Shown: piece by piece, positions 1-14,817 of the stretch
How positions within the stretch are numbered: position 1 is the stretch's first letter
Layout: each line of letters begins with the position of its first letter
Sequence record: NC_052653.1
Direction: 5' to 3' (one strand)
Origin: Escherichia phage vB_vPM_PD06
DNA: 64,000 nt
The notes under the pieces: model-generated
What the model was told of the DNA's origin: nothing
Seen by the model: only the letters and a program-made list of their open reading frames with translations
Database searches by the model: none
Translations under genes and position numbers: made by a program

Positions 1-99
1 CAACAAATAGGATAACTATGGGGGCAATAGTATGAAAAACCATCTATTCAGATGTAAATAATTTTGCGCAATAATGGTAATATTTTTCTTGACAAGAAA

Positions 100-140
100 G
101 ATTTCTTTGTGTTCACATAGCGCCCCCTGGAAGGTGGCGC
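100..140 (+). repeat. Inverted-orientation copy of the conserved box+hairpin element
   Basis: TTCACATAG box at 112-120 followed by GCGCC...GGCGC hairpin 120-140; same motif as the elements between leftward genes but reading on the + strand. Confidence 0.3.
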
Positions 141-1011
141 ATTATGATCATCAGGGTAATTATTCACTATGTTTATTATTGGATAGCTTATATTATAGCC
201 AATGTTCCAAACATTAGCTAATAATAACGCACCGCAACAATGTAAGGGAATACAATATACCATGTATATTGTTGCGCTTGCAATTGTTGCAAGCTACATA
301 AGCACAGATAATAACTATCGGTGATGGTTATTATGTGGGGTGTGTAGTTGCGTTATTATTAGCCGCCTATGTGTCCGGCATAGGCTGCTAATGATACGCT
401 TGCGAATTATATTTCTTGTTATAATTATTGTATGAAATGATTATTTAGGTAATAGATAGTAAGGTAAAGATTAGATCATAAATAGATAGGATATTAATTA
501 TTTAGTAATGTTACTAACAATTTAATAGTTACTTTGTGCAACAATTCGATAGATTATAGTTATAGTTTTAAAGGTTAGATAGATTATATTTAGCTTGGTA
601 ATGATTTATATTAGTTATTGTTGTTTAATATAAGGTTATCAATGAGATAATAACAGTAAGTTATAAATAAAAGTGAGATAATTAGCTTTAATTTAGTTAG
701 ATAGCTTATTATTTTATATGTTAGATGGCCTTAAGTTAAGAATGATTATCATTATTACATTATTCAGTTTATTGCATAAATAATCAGCTATAAATCAGAA
801 TGATTATTATTTAAGAGGAAAGAGAAGAAAAAGGCTGTTTTTGCCAGATAGTTGCATGAAGAAATTAAAAATAAGCGGTCTAAAACACGCTGTAAGCGCC
901 TTATGATCTTCATGGTATGGTTATTCATCTGCTCCTTGATTAGCTCGATACCGCGATCTATTCACTTTTTCGGTGAACGTTTTTGATAGGTAAAAGATAT
1001 CATCTTTATTG

Positions 1012-1042
1012 AGGTAAAAAGAAAGGGCGCTTATTGCGCCCT
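1012..1042 (-). terminator. Intrinsic terminator ending the leftward early-like array
   Basis: Hairpin AGGGCGC-TTATT-GCGCCCT at 1024-1042 with A-run on + (U-run on - strand) just downstream of the stop at 1058; identical hairpin recurs at 7470-7488. Confidence 0.5.
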
Positions 1043-1057
1043 TGTGTGAAATGTTAT

Positions 1058-1441
1058 TTACTTATAAGCCGGATCGTTTGTTATATCAAGCCAATGAGCT
1101 AAATTAATTTTATTTTTTGCTTTCATTTTCTCGATCAAACGTTCGGCTAATGTTTCTGAACGAATATAAACATAATCGCTAAAATCTTGCCCGGTTTCCT
1201 CGTCGATCATCTCGCGATATTCAATTTTCCCGATAAACGCATGATTCAGCGCATAAGTTTTACCCGTGTACCAGTTGTGCAAATGAATCTCACATTTATA
1301 ATCGTCGCTATAACCTTCGGTTGTTCTAACTTCAACCAAGTCACCTTTGAACACGGATAAGCACCACATAGGATCACGATCTACAGCGCCATTAAAATCT
1401 TTACCGTTTACAGTAGCCGCCAGGTTGATGATATTGCTCAT
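1058..1441 (-). CDS. Hypothetical protein (127 aa)
   Basis: Six-frame ORF; last gene of compact leftward array. Confidence 0.6.
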   Translation of the reverse strand: MSNIINLAATVNGKDFNGAVDRDPMWCLSVFKGDLVEVRTTEGYSDDYKCEIHLHNWYTGKTYALNHAFIGKIEYREMIDEETGQDFSDYVYIRSETLAERLIEKMKAKNKINLAHWLDITNDPAYK

Positions 1442-1474
1442 GGAGATTCCTCGTTTACCGTTTAAAATTGCTTG

Positions 1475-1501
1475 CCCTACACGATAACTATAAATTAACA
1501 G
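1475..1501 (-). repeat. Box-only copy of conserved intergenic element (no hairpin)
   Basis: CCCTACACGATAACTATAAATTAACAG resembles the box CCCTATGTGATAAACTATACCAG of the element at 8907-8947. Confidence 0.3.
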
Positions 1502-1516
1502 AGGCTATAAAGCAAG

Positions 1517-1825
1517 TTATTTTTCATAGAATTTTTCTACTGTGATATTCTTCCCGGTGGGATTAGCTACTTTCAAAATTTTATCATGTACTGGACGCCC
1601 AAAAGAATAAGATCCGTATACAGTAAACCAATAATCACCGTCAGGCTGTACTATCACCGCTGCATAAGGTACGCCTTTTTCGTTATTGCTGACAGAATAG
1701 ATCACATTGCCGTTAATAGCCTCAGCGCGTTTAATTTGTTCGATCATGATATGATTCCTATATTGAGCGGGAAACCACTTCCCGCCTACGTGATAAATAA
1801 TAGTGTAAGCGTGATCCGGTGTCAA
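1517..1825 (-). CDS. Hypothetical protein (102 aa)
   Basis: Six-frame ORF in leftward array. Confidence 0.6.
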   Translation of the reverse strand: MTPDHAYTIIYHVGGKWFPAQYRNHIMIEQIKRAEAINGNVIYSVSNNEKGVPYAAVIVQPDGDYWFTVYGSYSFGRPVHDKILKVANPTGKNITVEKFYEK

Positions 1826-1961
1826 TAGGTAGAATTGTAAAGATTTGATAGTTTATACCTTTGATGTTTTGTCGTTTGATAGGTATTAGCTATCAATATA
1901 TAGCGGGGTCTTCCGGTGATTACCTCCCCCCGTCACCAGGTGCCGCCCGTTCAATAAGCAT

Positions 1962-1990
1962 AACAAAAAACAGGACAAAAACAAGCCCTG
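1962..1990 (-). terminator. Putative intrinsic terminator (weak stem)
   Basis: CAGGAC...GCCCTG stem at 1971-1990 followed on - strand by T-run (plus-strand AACAAAAAA). Confidence 0.3.
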
Positions 1991-2001
1991 TTTTGTAAAG
2001 A

Positions 2002-2205
2002 TTAGATGATCTGCATATCCTCCATGATAATTTCTAATTTCCAAACAAGATGATCTAAGCTCCCTGATAAAAATGATTCCGATACATAACCGCCATCGGA
2101 CACCGTAGCAAGGATCTCGCCATTTGCTTGCTCTTTGATTTGAACATCCAGGCGGTTAGCCTTTGCTTTATTCAGGACGGCGATCAGGCGGTTAGCTGTA
2201 GTCAT
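2002..2205 (-). CDS. Hypothetical protein (67 aa)
   Basis: Six-frame ORF; box+hairpin element immediately upstream. Confidence 0.5.
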   Translation of the reverse strand: MTTANRLIAVLNKAKANRLDVQIKEQANGEILATVSDGGYVSESFLSGSLDHLVWKLEIIMEDMQII

Positions 2206-2227
2206 GGTGTTTTCCTTCCAGTTGTGA

Positions 2228-2264
2228 GCGGCACCATTGCCGCCCTACGTGATACATCTTACAC
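2228..2264 (-). repeat. Conserved box+hairpin intergenic element
   Basis: Hairpin GCGGCA-CCAT-TGCCGC then box CCTACGTGATACATCTTACACT; on - strand reads TAAGATGTATCACGTAGGGCGGCA. Confidence 0.6.
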
Positions 2265-2289
2265 TATCCGATACATTGTGCAAGCTATT

Positions 2290-2481
2290 TTAGATCTCGT
2301 CACCTATATAATCAGATCTATTCTTTTCTGTCATACGCTTAAGCAATTTTTGCATATGGCTTATGGCTTGCAATGTATCTTCTTCCAGGCTTGAATCGAG
2401 ATAATCAGGATCATTCTTTACCTTGCTATGATTGTGATACCGCAACGCTGCTAATACCTTTCTAACTTGTTCTGCATTCAT
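2290..2481 (-). CDS. Hypothetical protein (63 aa)
   Basis: Six-frame ORF in leftward array. Confidence 0.5.
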   Translation of the reverse strand: MNAEQVRKVLAALRYHNHSKVKNDPDYLDSSLEEDTLQAISHMQKLLKRMTEKNRSDYIGDEI

Positions 2482-2630
2482 TTTTATTACTCCTTAAAAC
2501 CAGGTGCCAACCGTTTCCAATAGGTCACTGACTACCAGGACAACATTAATCAGCACATATTCAACCAGGAAGGGAATAAGCGCCAGCGTTGCTACTACGA
2601 TCCCCATTGTGATGATTACCTTTCTCATGG

Positions 2631-2915
2631 TTAGCGGTTTACCTGGGCTTTACCGTTTACGGTCATCGGTATGGCCTCAAGGTCTGGATCTTCCTTAAGG
2701 TCGCGTGCAAGCTCACCGCACCGGACACCCTCGAATCCGTAGTACTCTGTTGTGCCGTCCTGGAAAGTTTTAGCGGCAAGGCATAGGCGATAATTAACGC
2801 CGATCCGGTTTATTGCGTTGATATCGGTTAGCGTGATGGATTCTGGCAACTCATTAGCCAGTACAGGCGCGTTAATACCAACAACCAGGGCAACTACTGC
2901 GATCATCTTTTTCAT
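2631..2915 (-). CDS. Hypothetical secreted protein (94 aa)
   Basis: N-terminus MKKMIAVVALVVGINAPVLA looks like a signal peptide. Confidence 0.6.
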   Translation of the reverse strand: MKKMIAVVALVVGINAPVLANELPESITLTDINAINRIGVNYRLCLAAKTFQDGTTEYYGFEGVRCGELARDLKEDPDLEAIPMTVNGKAQVNR

Positions 2916-2944
2916 GCGTCTATCCTCTTCCTATTGCGTTTAAT

Positions 2945-2960
2945 GGGGCGTTACCGCCCC
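2945..2960 (-). repeat. GC-rich intergenic hairpin (element family, hairpin only)
   Basis: GGGGCG-TTAC-CGCCCC. Confidence 0.45.
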
Positions 2961-2969
2961 GCTTATGGT

Positions 2970-3206
2970 TTATTGATTGATGTTATGATGAAAGTTATTT
3001 TCTTCAATAGCTTTTAAAATAAAAGCCGTGATCGCTTTCGTATCTACTTGTTCGAACGTATCAGAATAAGCCCAATAATAATCATCCCCTACTTTCGGCG
3101 GGTAAACCTGGACAAGGAGATCGCCACCTGGTTGATCTATAAGCTCAACATGCAAGCCGGATGATTCAGCGGTTTTAACGGCGTTTAATACTGTTGCAAT
3201 ACTCAT
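2970..3206 (-). CDS. Hypothetical protein (78 aa)
   Basis: Six-frame ORF. Confidence 0.55.
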   Translation of the reverse strand: MSIATVLNAVKTAESSGLHVELIDQPGGDLLVQVYPPKVGDDYYWAYSDTFEQVDTKAITAFILKAIEENNFHHNINQ

Positions 3207-12256: not shown

Positions 12257-12258
12257 TC

Positions 12259-12287
12259 TTGACAAGCCCAGGGATCGGGCTTATACT
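12259..12287 (+). promoter_or_regulatory. Consensus sigma70-type promoter (rightward) with no obvious ORF downstream
   Basis: TTGACA (12259-12264), 17-bp spacer AGCCCAGGGATCGGGCT, TATACT (12282-12287). Confidence 0.55.
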
Positions 12288-12520
12288 GTTTTACATACAG
12301 AAGAGGAAACGCCACCCCCACGGCGTAAAGGCGGGGCTAACATACCAGGGGGGGCACTGGTTGGAAGGTTGATCGCCGGTAGCTCGTCTAAAATAAATTT
12401 GTAAAGAAATGTAAAGATAAAAATAATCGCTTGCTTTTGTTGTTGGTTATGCTATTCTTATTGTATGGCGAGGGGACACGGGAGCGCGAGACAAACACCG
12501 CCCCTGCGCGTTATTCTGTA

Positions 12521-12631
12521 AATGAGAAAAATTCTCATTTGCTAATGATTCTCATTCTCTTAGTGAGAATGCTTATCATTTACATAATTAAATGATAATG
12601 ATTCTCATTTACAAATGAGAATGATTATCAT
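12521..12631. repeat. Cluster of three palindromes sharing a GAGAAT/ATTCTC core
   Basis: AATGAGAA-aaa-TTCTCATT (12521-12539); CATTCTC-ttagt-GAGAATG (12553-12571); ATGATAATGATTCTCAT...ATGAGAATGATTATCAT (12592-12631). Confidence 0.6.
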
Positions 12632-12655
12632 ACGCATACCCATAAAAACACGAAA

Positions 12656-12857
12656 TTGAACTTTTCATTTTTGATTTTTCTACGGAAAAAGGCAAAAAAA
12701 CTTTAAATAAACTGGGGAATTTTTAAAAAATTGAAGTTTTCATTTTCAAAATCTGGATAGAAATACGTACAAAAACTTTAAATAATTTTGACCAAACTTG
12801 AACTTTTCATTTTCAAAATTTGTACCCAAAAATCTGTAAAAACTTTAAATAATTTTG
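12656..12857. repeat. Three tandem ~67-75 bp direct repeats
   Basis: Units start at 12656, 12731, 12798; each TTGAAC/G-TTTTCATTTTCAAAAT...AAAAACTTTAAATAATTTTG. Confidence 0.6.
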
Positions 12858-13071
12858 TACTTTTTATAAAAATGATTTTACTGTTCTGTTATAAGTAGTA
12901 GTTAAGAGATAGTATGTCTTTTAAAGATCAGATACCATAGTCCAACAAACAAATTAAATACTTTATTAACAGGGTGTAGAATACTACTTACTCTGGATAT
13001 ACTGTGCAGAGGGTGAATTTCCGTACATGAAACCCACACCCCTTTTTATAAAAATAAAAATTTTCAAAATA

Positions 13072-13623: not shown

Positions 13624-14817
13624 TTACATCTCCTTATTATATACTAATTTGCCACCATGTTGTGTAATAATTTCTTGAAGATTTTCCAAATCAGAAACAC
13701 TTACTGTTTCTGTATAACCGTCTTTCAACTCTCTTTCCGTTAAAATACCAGTTTTTAATTTTTTCTTTATAGCTCTTTCAGCAGCCTTACATTGTTTCAC
13801 TGTGCTAAAATCATATAAACAAATACGCTCCATAAAAAACATATTACAACTATTTTGACTATTTAATCGCCTATCACTATCTTTAGCTATACCAAACTTA
13901 AGAGCCACTATAATATCATTATCTTTAACAATATTAATATATAATTGCTGTTGATTATGACCAGCACACTGTGGACAACCTTGACCGAGGCTTAATAAGT
14001 TATTAGCCCTCCCTGTCTGTTCCCCATGCACAAGACAAAGATATTTAAACTTACCGTGACTTCTAGACGGTTTACCGATCCAACCTACCCAGACATACCC
14101 TTGCCCTTCTACTTCCTTTTTTACCCTATAGGTGATCTGGTCTTCTGTATACCGATAGTTCCCACAACGACACGGAATGCACCCTCGTTTAAGGTTATTT
14201 CCTTCAGAGTAAAATTTACCATCACAAACACCTGCTTGAACATATTCATCATGAGAGCAAACAGGACATTCAACCATCCAGATACTATGCCTGCATCCTT
14301 TACTCCGTGTTCCTGTGTTAGTGAAGATAGTGCCTTCCTTAAATTTCCCTGTAGAAAAGAAATCTGCAATATGTTGATCGTCGGACATTGTTAGTGCCTT
14401 CCTTGTATTCTCCCCCCTACATTGTGGACAACCTCGACCGCCTTTAAATTGATGAATTGCTGTACTTTGCCATCTATTCCCACAATGGCACAACAAATCA
14501 AGTTTTGTTTTATTCCCTTTCCATTCTCCAACGTACCCTAACACCTGATACCCCTTCTTCTGTGCTATCTCTTCCAAGATCGGCAATTCTGTTTCCCATG
14601 TTAACGGCTTCTTACCAGAACAGATAGGACAACTGTTACCGTGCTTGAAATTACTAATACTACAAGTCTTCCATTCATGTTCCTGCCTACAGCGTAGAAT
14701 CATTTTCGTATCACAACCTATAAACGGTTCAACATATCCTAGGATCTCAATCCCTTTATTATTCGCAATAGGTTGACACTCTTCTTTATATTGTTCCCAT
14801 GATTTTGGTGCTGCCAT
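13624..14817 (-). CDS. Multi-zinc-ribbon protein with C-terminal T5orf172-like domain
   Basis: Five CPxC knuckles (SCPICSG, GCPQCRG, ECPVCSH, GCIPCRCG, GCPQCAGH); C-terminal ALKFGIAKDSDRRL resembles T5orf172/GIY-YIG-like. Confidence 0.5.
   Translation of the reverse strand: MAAPKSWEQYKEECQPIANNKGIEILGYVEPFIGCDTKMILRCRQEHEWKTCSISNFKHGNSCPICSGKKPLTWETELPILEEIAQKKGYQVLGYVGEWKGNKTKLDLLCHCGNRWQSTAIHQFKGGRGCPQCRGENTRKALTMSDDQHIADFFSTGKFKEGTIFTNTGTRSKGCRHSIWMVECPVCSHDEYVQAGVCDGKFYSEGNNLKRGCIPCRCGNYRYTEDQITYRVKKEVEGQGYVWVGWIGKPSRSHGKFKYLCLVHGEQTGRANNLLSLGQGCPQCAGHNQQQLYINIVKDNDIIVALKFGIAKDSDRRLNSQNSCNMFFMERICLYDFSTVKQCKAAERAIKKKLKTGILTERELKDGYTETVSVSDLENLQEIITQHGGKLVYNKEM

Follow-up and report, generated by a model that had tools for sequence, protein, structure and literature searches.

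A terminus-proximal non-coding region with a conserved folded element and a shared repeat-edge motif in phi92-like phages

In phages T7 and T3, the concatemer junction combines a short direct terminal repeat (DTR), adjoining arrays of short repeats, the phiOR promoter and, near the right end, a hairpin intermediate derived from a palindrome. Phage phi29 uses an RNA, pRNA, as part of its packaging motor and has protein-primed ends with neither a terminase nor a DTR. The cos region of phage lambda consists of cosN and of cosB with an integration host factor (IHF) site and yields cohesive ends of 12 nucleotides (nt), and the injection-stop region of phage T5 is non-coding DNA rich in repeats and palindromes, located inside a 10-kilobase (kb) terminal repeat and containing DnaA boxes. 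The locus described here is positions 1-1057 of a 64,000-nt stretch of Escherichia phage vB_vPM_PD06 (sequence record NC_052653.1; the whole stretch is called the window), a gene-free region that begins where the DTR of its relatives ends and that contains a folded element at 217-392. The reading preferred here, with a probability of roughly 55%, makes this a control region close to the terminus that would serve end formation and packaging, with a + strand folded element that would be RNA or single-stranded DNA.

The locus has partial likenesses to each of these systems and differs from all of them. By analogy with T7 and T3, it would combine a short DTR, reiterated words at the repeat edge and a promoter-like element with inverted repeats a few hundred base pairs (bp) inside one end, and its junction repeat would need duplication; unlike them, it belongs to a myovirus, has no phage RNA polymerase promoter, carries a covarying multi-helix element with polarity instead of a single palindrome, and shows no sequence similarity. 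The parallel with phi29 pRNA would lie in a folded element of ~170 nt that is encoded no more than a few hundred bp from a genome end, but the fold is different here, and no loop-loop complementarity beyond 3-4 nt is seen by eye. A cut site flanked on the cut side by reiterated small sites and a host-factor-type site (here putative Fur-box-like palindromes) may be likened to lambda cos, from which the locus is set apart by its 343-bp repeat ends and the lack of an IHF core. With T5, also a virulent coliphage, it might be compared for a large non-coding stretch with direct and inverted repeats near the terminal repeat, but here the region has no DnaA boxes and is placed outside the repeat, which measures 343 bp.

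The terminus placement of the locus is already implicit in public annotation: the right-end repeat annotated in phi92 and the DTRs determined with PhageTerm in Stephanstirmvirinae and Vequintavirinae occupy the same locus, and the non-coding setting of the repeat is known. Stephanstirmvirinae genomes terminate in DTRs according to a 2025 paper, and in the rV5-like phage LL12 a terminal repeat of 459 bp occupies non-coding DNA flanked by convergent transcripts. These records and papers annotate the repeat alone, and in the literature outside the phi92 genome paper no description of the boundary motif, the folded element or the conserved layout was found. The structured element, the motif shared by both repeat edges and the conserved architecture are new here.

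A megablast search with positions 1-1100 returns 59 phage records, 53 of them covering the query with 90-97% identity; almost all belong to Justusliebigvirus (phi92-like, Stephanstirmvirinae). Some ~80 further records from Phapecoctavirus and related phages appear when the search is made more sensitive, and these match only the sub-blocks ~272-400 and ~900-1045 at ~71% identity. Judged by these matches, the source of the window is a Justusliebigvirus (phi92-like) phage, shown in the reverse complement of the phi92 reference. The phi92 record (NC_023693) carries the annotation of a 343-bp 'right end direct terminal repeat' (DTR-R), which in window orientation ends in ...AAGAAAGTAGGCT and is followed by CAACAAATAGG, the same bases as window positions 1-11. 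Window positions 1-10 (CAACAAATAG) correspond to 344-353 of the reverse-complemented phi92 right end, immediately after ...GTAGGCT at 343, and base 1 is phi92 position 344, one base beyond DTR-R. The BME3 record (PP239276) starts with AACGCGATTTTC (AACGCGA), ends in ...GTAGGCT and has identical first and last 342 nt; the 342-bp DTR of this phage was determined with PhageTerm (PMC12210895), and window base 1 is also the first base after it. The records of Mt1B1_P17 and WPEC4 (Phapecoctavirus) begin at the homologous AACGCGAATTTTC (AACGCGA), which brings to three the independent records that open at this point. The relatives therefore have identical sequence at both genome ends, as the 342-nt identity in BME3 and as the annotated DTR-R in phi92.

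Because base 1 is the first base past the DTR of phi92 and BME3, positions 1-1057 are the gene-free stretch that runs, by homology, from the inner edge of a ~343-bp DTR to the terminator of the last early gene. An earlier note, made from the sequence of this region alone, had offered three interpretations: a genome terminus or packaging region, an origin, or a non-coding RNA locus. The observation as a whole is partly confirmed and the three-way interpretation partly supported. The terminus option holds for position, while a packaging role is a proposal made here from context. The outcome named as its refutation, ordinary coding sequence in a longer assembly, does not occur; in permuted records the gene-free gap is longer still, at ~1.8 kb, and consists of a left-end promoter region of ~370 bp, the DTR and the region 1-1057.

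The two edges of the repeat carry a common motif, of which the window holds the inner half:

1-10, + strand: inner half of the DTR boundary motif (...GTAGGCT^CAAC..., where the caret marks the edge), CAACAAATAG; starts with the first unique base after the terminal repeat

In every lineage fetched, the outer DTR edge is GAGAGGTGCT^TAACGCGA, and the inner edge is AGAGAAGGTGCT^CAACATAT in phAPEC8 and AAGTAGGCT^CAACAAAT in phi92. A motif of ~13 nt is common to both edges and points the same way at each: the outer edge has RGGTGCT^TAAC, the inner edge (the window start) has GGCT^CAAC, and GCT^YAAC is the shared core. Since the same motif stands in the same orientation at both edges, both virion ends would arise by cutting after GCT, and the core is a candidate recognition site for a terminase or nuclease. 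The 10-mer CAACAAATAG occurs once in the window, twice in phi92 and four times in BME3, and the boundary unit is reiterated past the inner edge in several lineages; in the Klebsiella-phage lineage, GTGCT^CAACA with a hairpin and CGCCC is repeated two to three times at a spacing of ~75 nt.

Inside this edge lies the folded element, whose parts are as follows.

217-392, + strand: conserved structured element of 176 nt, a three-way junction plus a hairpin, recognised by covariation
217-230/350-363: helix 1
234-248/275-290: helix 2
292-299/342-349: helix 3
311-319/323-331: helix 4, with a 3-nt loop
365-372/378-385: helix 5, with the loop TGTCC
276-294: GCTTGCAA-TTG-TTGCAAGC, an 8-bp inverted repeat around a non-palindromic TTG; one arm of the element

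A perfect 15-nt inverted repeat (217-231/349-363) encloses the internal hairpins, and a further hairpin follows it. A structure-blind MAFFT alignment was made of 14 sequences from six lineages (Justusliebigvirus, Phapecoctavirus, phiWec179, Citrobacter phage Tr1, and Klebsiella phages FKP3 and KP2025). RNAalifold applied to this alignment returns the five helices, with 99.6% of cells pairing and 15 pairs changed on both sides (0 of 500 shuffles). A covariance model and pattern scans of viral and metagenome collections enlarge the set to 23 distinct sequences from several genera, in which 98.9% of cells are paired (100% in helices 1, 3, 4 and 5, and 96% in helix 2) and 16 of the 53 pairs show double changes (0 of 500 shuffles); when the partners are slid by 1-3 columns, pairing in the 23 sequences falls to 27-55%. 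The end of helix 1 reads ACGCA/TGCGT, CCGCA/TGCGG, ACACA/TGTGT or AGCCA/TGGCT according to lineage, and helix 4 exists in six different sequences with a C-G, U.G, U-A series at one pair; the column pair 102-112 takes these three states across lineages. The unpaired stretches CTACATAA and GGTGTAGTTG are conserved as well. Compensatory changes in independent lineages, the general mark of a conserved structured RNA, are thus present, and the element is maintained as a three-way junction plus hairpin by compensatory mutations.

The perfect palindrome that the earlier note placed at 277-296 exists as an inverted repeat, but lies at 276-294 and has a TTG centre that is not palindromic; it is one arm of the larger multi-helix element, which that first reading missed. 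This segment can form a hairpin of its own, or its 5' half can pair with 234-248 as helix 2, and the third loop base of its hairpin covaries with column 22 (C-G, n=8; U-A, n=15). As helix 2 competes with the stand-alone hairpin, the segment may switch between two forms.

The covariance model finds no second copy in the 64-kb window, and the core pattern has five matches in bacterial genome contigs, all in unrelated metagenome-assembled genomes, against 4.3 expected by chance. An exact-pattern scan of IMG/VR that includes the helix-5 loop returns one true locus and one chance locus. Rfam 15 gives no match at E<=1 in window positions 1-3000 and none at E<=0.1 in four related loci, and a search for tRNA and tmRNA finds none. 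The idea that helix 5 mimics or pairs with the leader box of early mRNAs (CRTAGG) was rejected because the two do not co-vary: phAPEC8, Tr1 and KP2025 have the same box but different helix 5 sequences.

Three record-level observations concern the element and its surroundings. The tip of helix 4 is flipped between relatives, reading CTATC-GGT-GATGG here (311-331) and CCATC-ACC-GATGG in arall and phAPEC8 (L001 5324-5344), so that the hairpin centre is inverted. Near its end, the BME3 record contains a repeat of its opening 788 nt (798-1585 vs 1-788), which cuts the folded element in the helix-5 loop and fuses it to left-end sequence; this 788-bp duplication is probably an artefact of assembly or curation, and the second element copy that it creates, being a duplication of the record's own start, was not used as evidence. 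The record of Klebsiella phage FKP3 (1-830) opens inside a DTR-like segment, with a second copy at ~488-830; it may hold two tandem DTR-like units or be another record artefact.

The helices also indicate a strand. Helices 1, 3, 4 and 5 contain G.U at 8 positions and A.C at none, and the minus strand would have mismatches at all of these. The RNA minimum free energy in the window is -80.6 kcal/mol for the + strand (z -7.9) and -61.0 kcal/mol for the minus strand (z -5.9), and with RNA parameters the + strand is the more stable by 7-22 kcal/mol in all six lineages tested. The restriction of G.U to the + strand and the lower + strand energies together argue that the element works as a single strand of + polarity; of the two forms that this strand could take, we slightly favour a + strand transcript over single-stranded DNA that is extruded or displaced. 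The suggestion of a non-coding RNA locus is accordingly plausible in view of the covarying + strand structure at 217-392, while no convincing promoter for it was found.

The element belongs to a layout that has the same order in every lineage examined (Stephanstirmvirinae and the Vequintavirinae phage Av-05): DTR, boundary unit, element, spacer, Fur-box-like palindromes, conserved block, terminator and the gene of a Gp30.8-like protein. Two Fur-box-like palindromes lie in the DTR and two more between the spacer and the conserved block. The remaining parts in the window are listed below.

11-88: boundary-proximal leader with the small hairpins ATAG-GATAA-CTAT, CATCT-ATTC-AGATG and TTGCGCAA plus a G-run; a hot-spot of indels and copy number in relatives
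89-140, + strand: copy of the early-promoter leader, with TTGACA (90-95), the box TTCACATAG (112-120) and the GC hairpin GCGCCCCC-TGGAA-GGTGGCGC (120-140)
401-830, + strand: AT-rich, C-depleted spacer with 5.3% C, TAGATAG at 453, 483, 576 and 698, and a 16-nt variable-number repeat near 420-445
738-756: Fur-box-like palindrome AAGAATGATTATCATTATT, with 16/19 matches to the E. coli consensus GATAATGATAATCATTATC
796-814: weaker Fur-box-like palindrome CAGAATGATTATTATTTAA; the phi92 version is AAGAATGATTATCATTTAA
868-1022: block conserved in primary sequence in all lineages including the Vequintavirinae phage Av-05, for example CGATACCGCGATCTATTCA and GATAGGTAAAAG-TATCA
1043-1023, minus strand: intrinsic terminator of the rightmost early operon, AAGGGCGCAATAAGCGCCCTT then TCTTTTT, with 8 pairs (6 GC) and a loop of 5
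1058-1441, minus strand: Gp30.8-like protein, the last gene before the terminus (PF06019, E 1.9e-29); homologue of phi92 gp248

The element is found 170-250 nt from the DTR edge where that edge is defined (this genus, phAPEC8 and KP2025) and farther away where the boundary unit is reiterated. The elements of FBKp34 and Av-05 cannot be aligned to 217-392, yet perfect stems of 18-19 bp close them around internal hairpins, and their place and strand agree with those of 217-392. Extending the element family to Av-05 (Vequintavirinae) and FBKp34 was considered and rejected, and their marginal matches, in the right place and on the right strand, are called analogous and not homologous. Among close relatives, copy-number variation and indels are seen at 1-30, 170-200 and 420-445, with an insertion of 12-14 nt near 180.

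The box and hairpin copy that had been noticed near 100-140 is real and lies on the + strand at 89-140, between the boundary unit and the element. It is conserved in the genus, and FBKp34 has an analogous + strand copy upstream of its element. At least 11 early promoters of the corresponding kind stand on the minus strand between 1780 and 11310, each with TTGACA, 16-17 nt, a -10 hexamer, the box AYCACRTAGGGCGG, a GC-rich hairpin and then a ribosome-binding site, and the box recurs in phAPEC8, Tr1 and KP2025. The box and hairpin could be a 5' stabiliser or a nut-like site.

Two further Fur-box-like copies lie inside the DTR of relatives, at 57-75 and 252-270 of the phi92 right end, the latter with 17/19 matches, whereas sites with up to four mismatches (<=4) are expected 0.015 times per shuffled region. 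In all lineages these palindromes occupy conserved positions to either side of the DTR edge. They are putative binding sites for host Fur or for a phage protein, and as the same palindrome forms an array at 12520-12635 of the window, a phage-encoded binder is as possible as Fur. A conserved fold in the second block (868-1048) was rejected, since its covariation term is positive and compensatory change occurs at 1 pair only; with no covariation to support a fold, a protein-binding or promoter-type DNA signal is more likely at 868-1022. The terminator lies 15 nt past the stop codon of 1058-1441 and has the properties of an intrinsic terminator, and its stretch AAAAGAAAGGGCGC does not vary between lineages. 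The phAPEC8 terminator may be bidirectional, as a T-rich tail follows it on the + strand too.

The content of guanine plus cytosine (GC) is 30% in the first kb against ~38% in the whole window and falls to 21% in the core 401-830, so the region is AT-rich as first described. The + strand of this core has 38.6% A, 40.2% T, 15.8% G and 5.3% C, a GC skew of +0.47. The sequence of the spacer is unalignable between genera, and its excess of G over C on the + strand is kept in 13 of the 13 lineages measured (skew +0.11 to +0.51). The description of the region as full of iterated words holds in part. TAGATAG occurs four times, always on the + strand (0.32 expected; 0 of 1000 shuffles), and AATGATTAT three times against 0.03 expected, but GATAGATTATAG is present in a single exact copy, the two copies of TAGTTAT are equalled in 78 of 1000 shuffles and are not enriched, and repeated 7-mers and 8-mers overall are scarcely above shuffles (84/1000 and 35/1000). 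The shorter word GATAG has eight copies in 1-1057, on the + strand only, among them two pairs 30 bp apart. In this region Tandem Repeats Finder picks up just two tiny arrays (2-copy, 8-12 nt), and the best repeat family has four copies of 16 nt with 81-88% identity at spacings of 366, 30 and 122. The 16-nt unit near 420-445 is present in ~2 copies in arall and phi92 and in ~4 in muut (+16 and +48 alignment columns), where a repeat_region is annotated.

No gene is apparent in 1-1057. The six open reading frames (ORFs) of at least 30 amino acids have no Pfam or PHROG match, and four of them (48-263 on the minus strand and 74-217, 202-324 and 852-986 on the + strand) are interrupted by stops or frameshifts in phages that are 92-97% identical. 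The two that stay open, 788-928 on the minus strand (3 synonymous and 5 non-synonymous changes) and 340-435 on the + strand (1 and 4), have no third-position bias, whereas the true neighbour gene at 1058-1441 has 27 synonymous and 8 non-synonymous changes, with 28 of 37 changes at third positions. No ORF of the region is thus both open in relatives and marked by an excess of synonymous third-position changes, nor does any match a family, which bears out the initial judgement that no ORF here, 48-263 included, is convincing. Hidden small protein genes are accordingly very improbable. The best case for one is the 46-amino-acid minus-strand ORF 788-928, which has AAGGAG three bases upstream and has stayed open in six Justusliebigvirus genomes (the window, arall, muut, phi92, PATM and BME3), but its Shine-Dalgarno spacing is very short, its start codon is not present in the homologous phAPEC8 sequence, and its substitution pattern and the lack of family matches among the small ORFs count against it. 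Several GenBank records place 5-6 'hypothetical proteins' in the region; to judge from these patterns, they are very likely spurious.

On the control-region reading, a terminase or an associated nuclease would recognise GCT^YAAC, with a cut at the outer copy producing one genome end and a cut at the inner copy the other. Cuts at both copies would imply that the single repeat at each concatemer junction must be duplicated, as in T7-type phages. The adjacent conserved DNA (boundary unit, folded element, Fur-box-like palindromes and conserved block) would provide accessory signals for recognition or processing of the junction, and the folded element would act in single-stranded form, with + polarity. 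Early transcription would be held back from the junction by the strong terminator and by the spacer, minus-strand RNA of the spacer being C-rich, G-poor and presumably Rho-prone, and the C-poor + strand would help an untranslated RNA to escape Rho.

Several points weigh against this reading. We infer the function of the region, and likewise the packaging role of each element, from position and conservation. The DTR is absent from the window itself. The boundary motifs are direct repeats and fit double-strand cuts better than the classical model of opposite-strand nicks. Folding with DNA parameters gives nearly equal strands (-46.8 vs -42.5 kcal/mol), so RNA and DNA are not separable on this basis. 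There is no convincing sigma-70 promoter upstream of the element on the + strand: a generic promoter scan stays at chance level (13 found vs 11.7 expected), candidates just upstream of helix 1 and inside the DTR are, by eye, not conserved between lineages, and the leader copy at 89-140 lacks the usual -10 hexamer, its promoter activity being doubtful because the box occupies that place. The covariance model gives only marginal scores for Av-05 (14.9 bits, E 0.026) and FBKp34 (12.6 bits, E 0.11), which do not make homology significant. Genomes of the genus conserve the region no better than the genes beside it, so that taken alone they do not reveal constraint.

A serious contender, at a little under even odds, is a separate gene for a + strand non-coding RNA whose role would lie in regulation or anti-defence and would have nothing to do with genome ends. 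Such a gene would start near 112-120 or in the DTR, carry 217-392, cross the C-poor, Rho-resistant spacer, and end at ~1043 or be processed to ~180 nt; it agrees with the control-region reading on the nature of the element and differs from it on the role. The covariation with G.U on the + strand only, the large + strand advantage under RNA energy parameters and the conservation of unpaired stretches and loops, typical of structured RNAs, all speak for it, as do the depletion of C on the + strand in all lineages measured, the early-mRNA leader copy that lies upstream on the + strand in this genus and FBKp34, and the + strand T-rich tail of the phAPEC8 terminator. This proposal has to contend with the lack of a credible -10, of a terminator straight after helix 5 and of an Rfam family match; moreover, perfect closing stems of 15-19 bp are unusual in stable RNAs and would be targets of RNase III, and the constant distance of 170-250 bp from the DTR edge is left unexplained.

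A replication origin is unlikely. The spacer 401-830 would be its unwinding region, for which the 21% GC of the core is suitably low, and the GATAG words would be iterons for a phage initiator, with the element as a primer RNA (R-loop) or a single-strand initiation signal. The GATAG and TAGATAG words do share one orientation and include two pairs 30 bp apart, the + strand excess of G over C favours R-loops, and a structured element just upstream of an AT-rich stretch recalls ColE1 RNA II and the T7 secondary origins near the ends. Yet the words measure 5-7 nt at irregular spacing, where iterons would be at least three regularly spaced direct repeats of ~17-22 bp; phi92 lacks one of the four TAGATAG copies, repeated k-mers overall stay near shuffle level and the spacer sequence is not conserved between genera. 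Neither a DnaA box (TTATCCACA) within 1 mismatch nor the IHF core WATCAANNNNTTR occurs in 1-1057, and a clearer array (three repeats of 67-75 bp plus 5-6 palindromes) exists at 12.5-12.9 kb, which leaves the origin as the weakest of the options first put forward. Still further from acceptance is an ordinary intergenic spacer with the terminator as its sole function and with hairpins and repeats left by slippage and recombination near the genome end. The copy-number variation and indels at 1-30, 170-200 and 420-445 and the lack of significance of most iterated words would suit it, but we give it hardly any credence, as the 16 base pairs with compensatory changes across genera already contradict it, and the conservation of a sequence block as far as Vequintavirinae and of part order and strand bias adds to this.

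The array mentioned above lies in a second gene-free region of the window, at 12257-13071 (~800 bp). It holds 5-6 Fur-box-like palindromes at 12520-12635 (unit ~TGAGAATGATTCTCATTTAC), followed at 12653-12873 by three direct repeats of 67-75 bp with a Tandem Repeats Finder score of 178, and its resemblance to an iteron-type origin or to a major regulatory switch is closer than that of 1-1057. On the minus strand at 13624-14817, a 397-amino-acid ORF has many CxxC pairs (CPICSG, CPQCRG, CPVCSH, CIPCRC and CPQCAG) and is predicted to encode a multi-zinc-ribbon protein.

Phages of the phi92-, phAPEC8- and rV5-like groups are widely isolated and are used in therapeutic and biocontrol cocktails, and their end formation, replication and packaging are essentially unstudied. 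The candidate cut motif GCT^YAAC at both repeat edges is now precise, and the region is a bounded candidate for cis-acting end and packaging signals, with an element whose helices are definable and can be broken and restored. These results are of use in engineering and rebooting genomes, for deciding what to keep in cis, and in annotation, where 5-6 'hypothetical proteins' are placed in this region. A speculative extension of the control-region reading, which we rate well short of probable, is that the element represents a new class of terminus-proximal structured nucleic acid, needed for junction processing (DTR duplication) or for the start of packaging in Stephanstirmvirinae and relatives; it would then be a functional parallel to phi29 pRNA or the T7 right-end hairpin, but in terminase-using myoviruses. 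If the element acts in end formation, it would represent a new mechanism for myoviruses with short DTRs, and if it is instead an early non-coding RNA, it would define a phage RNA family absent from Rfam.

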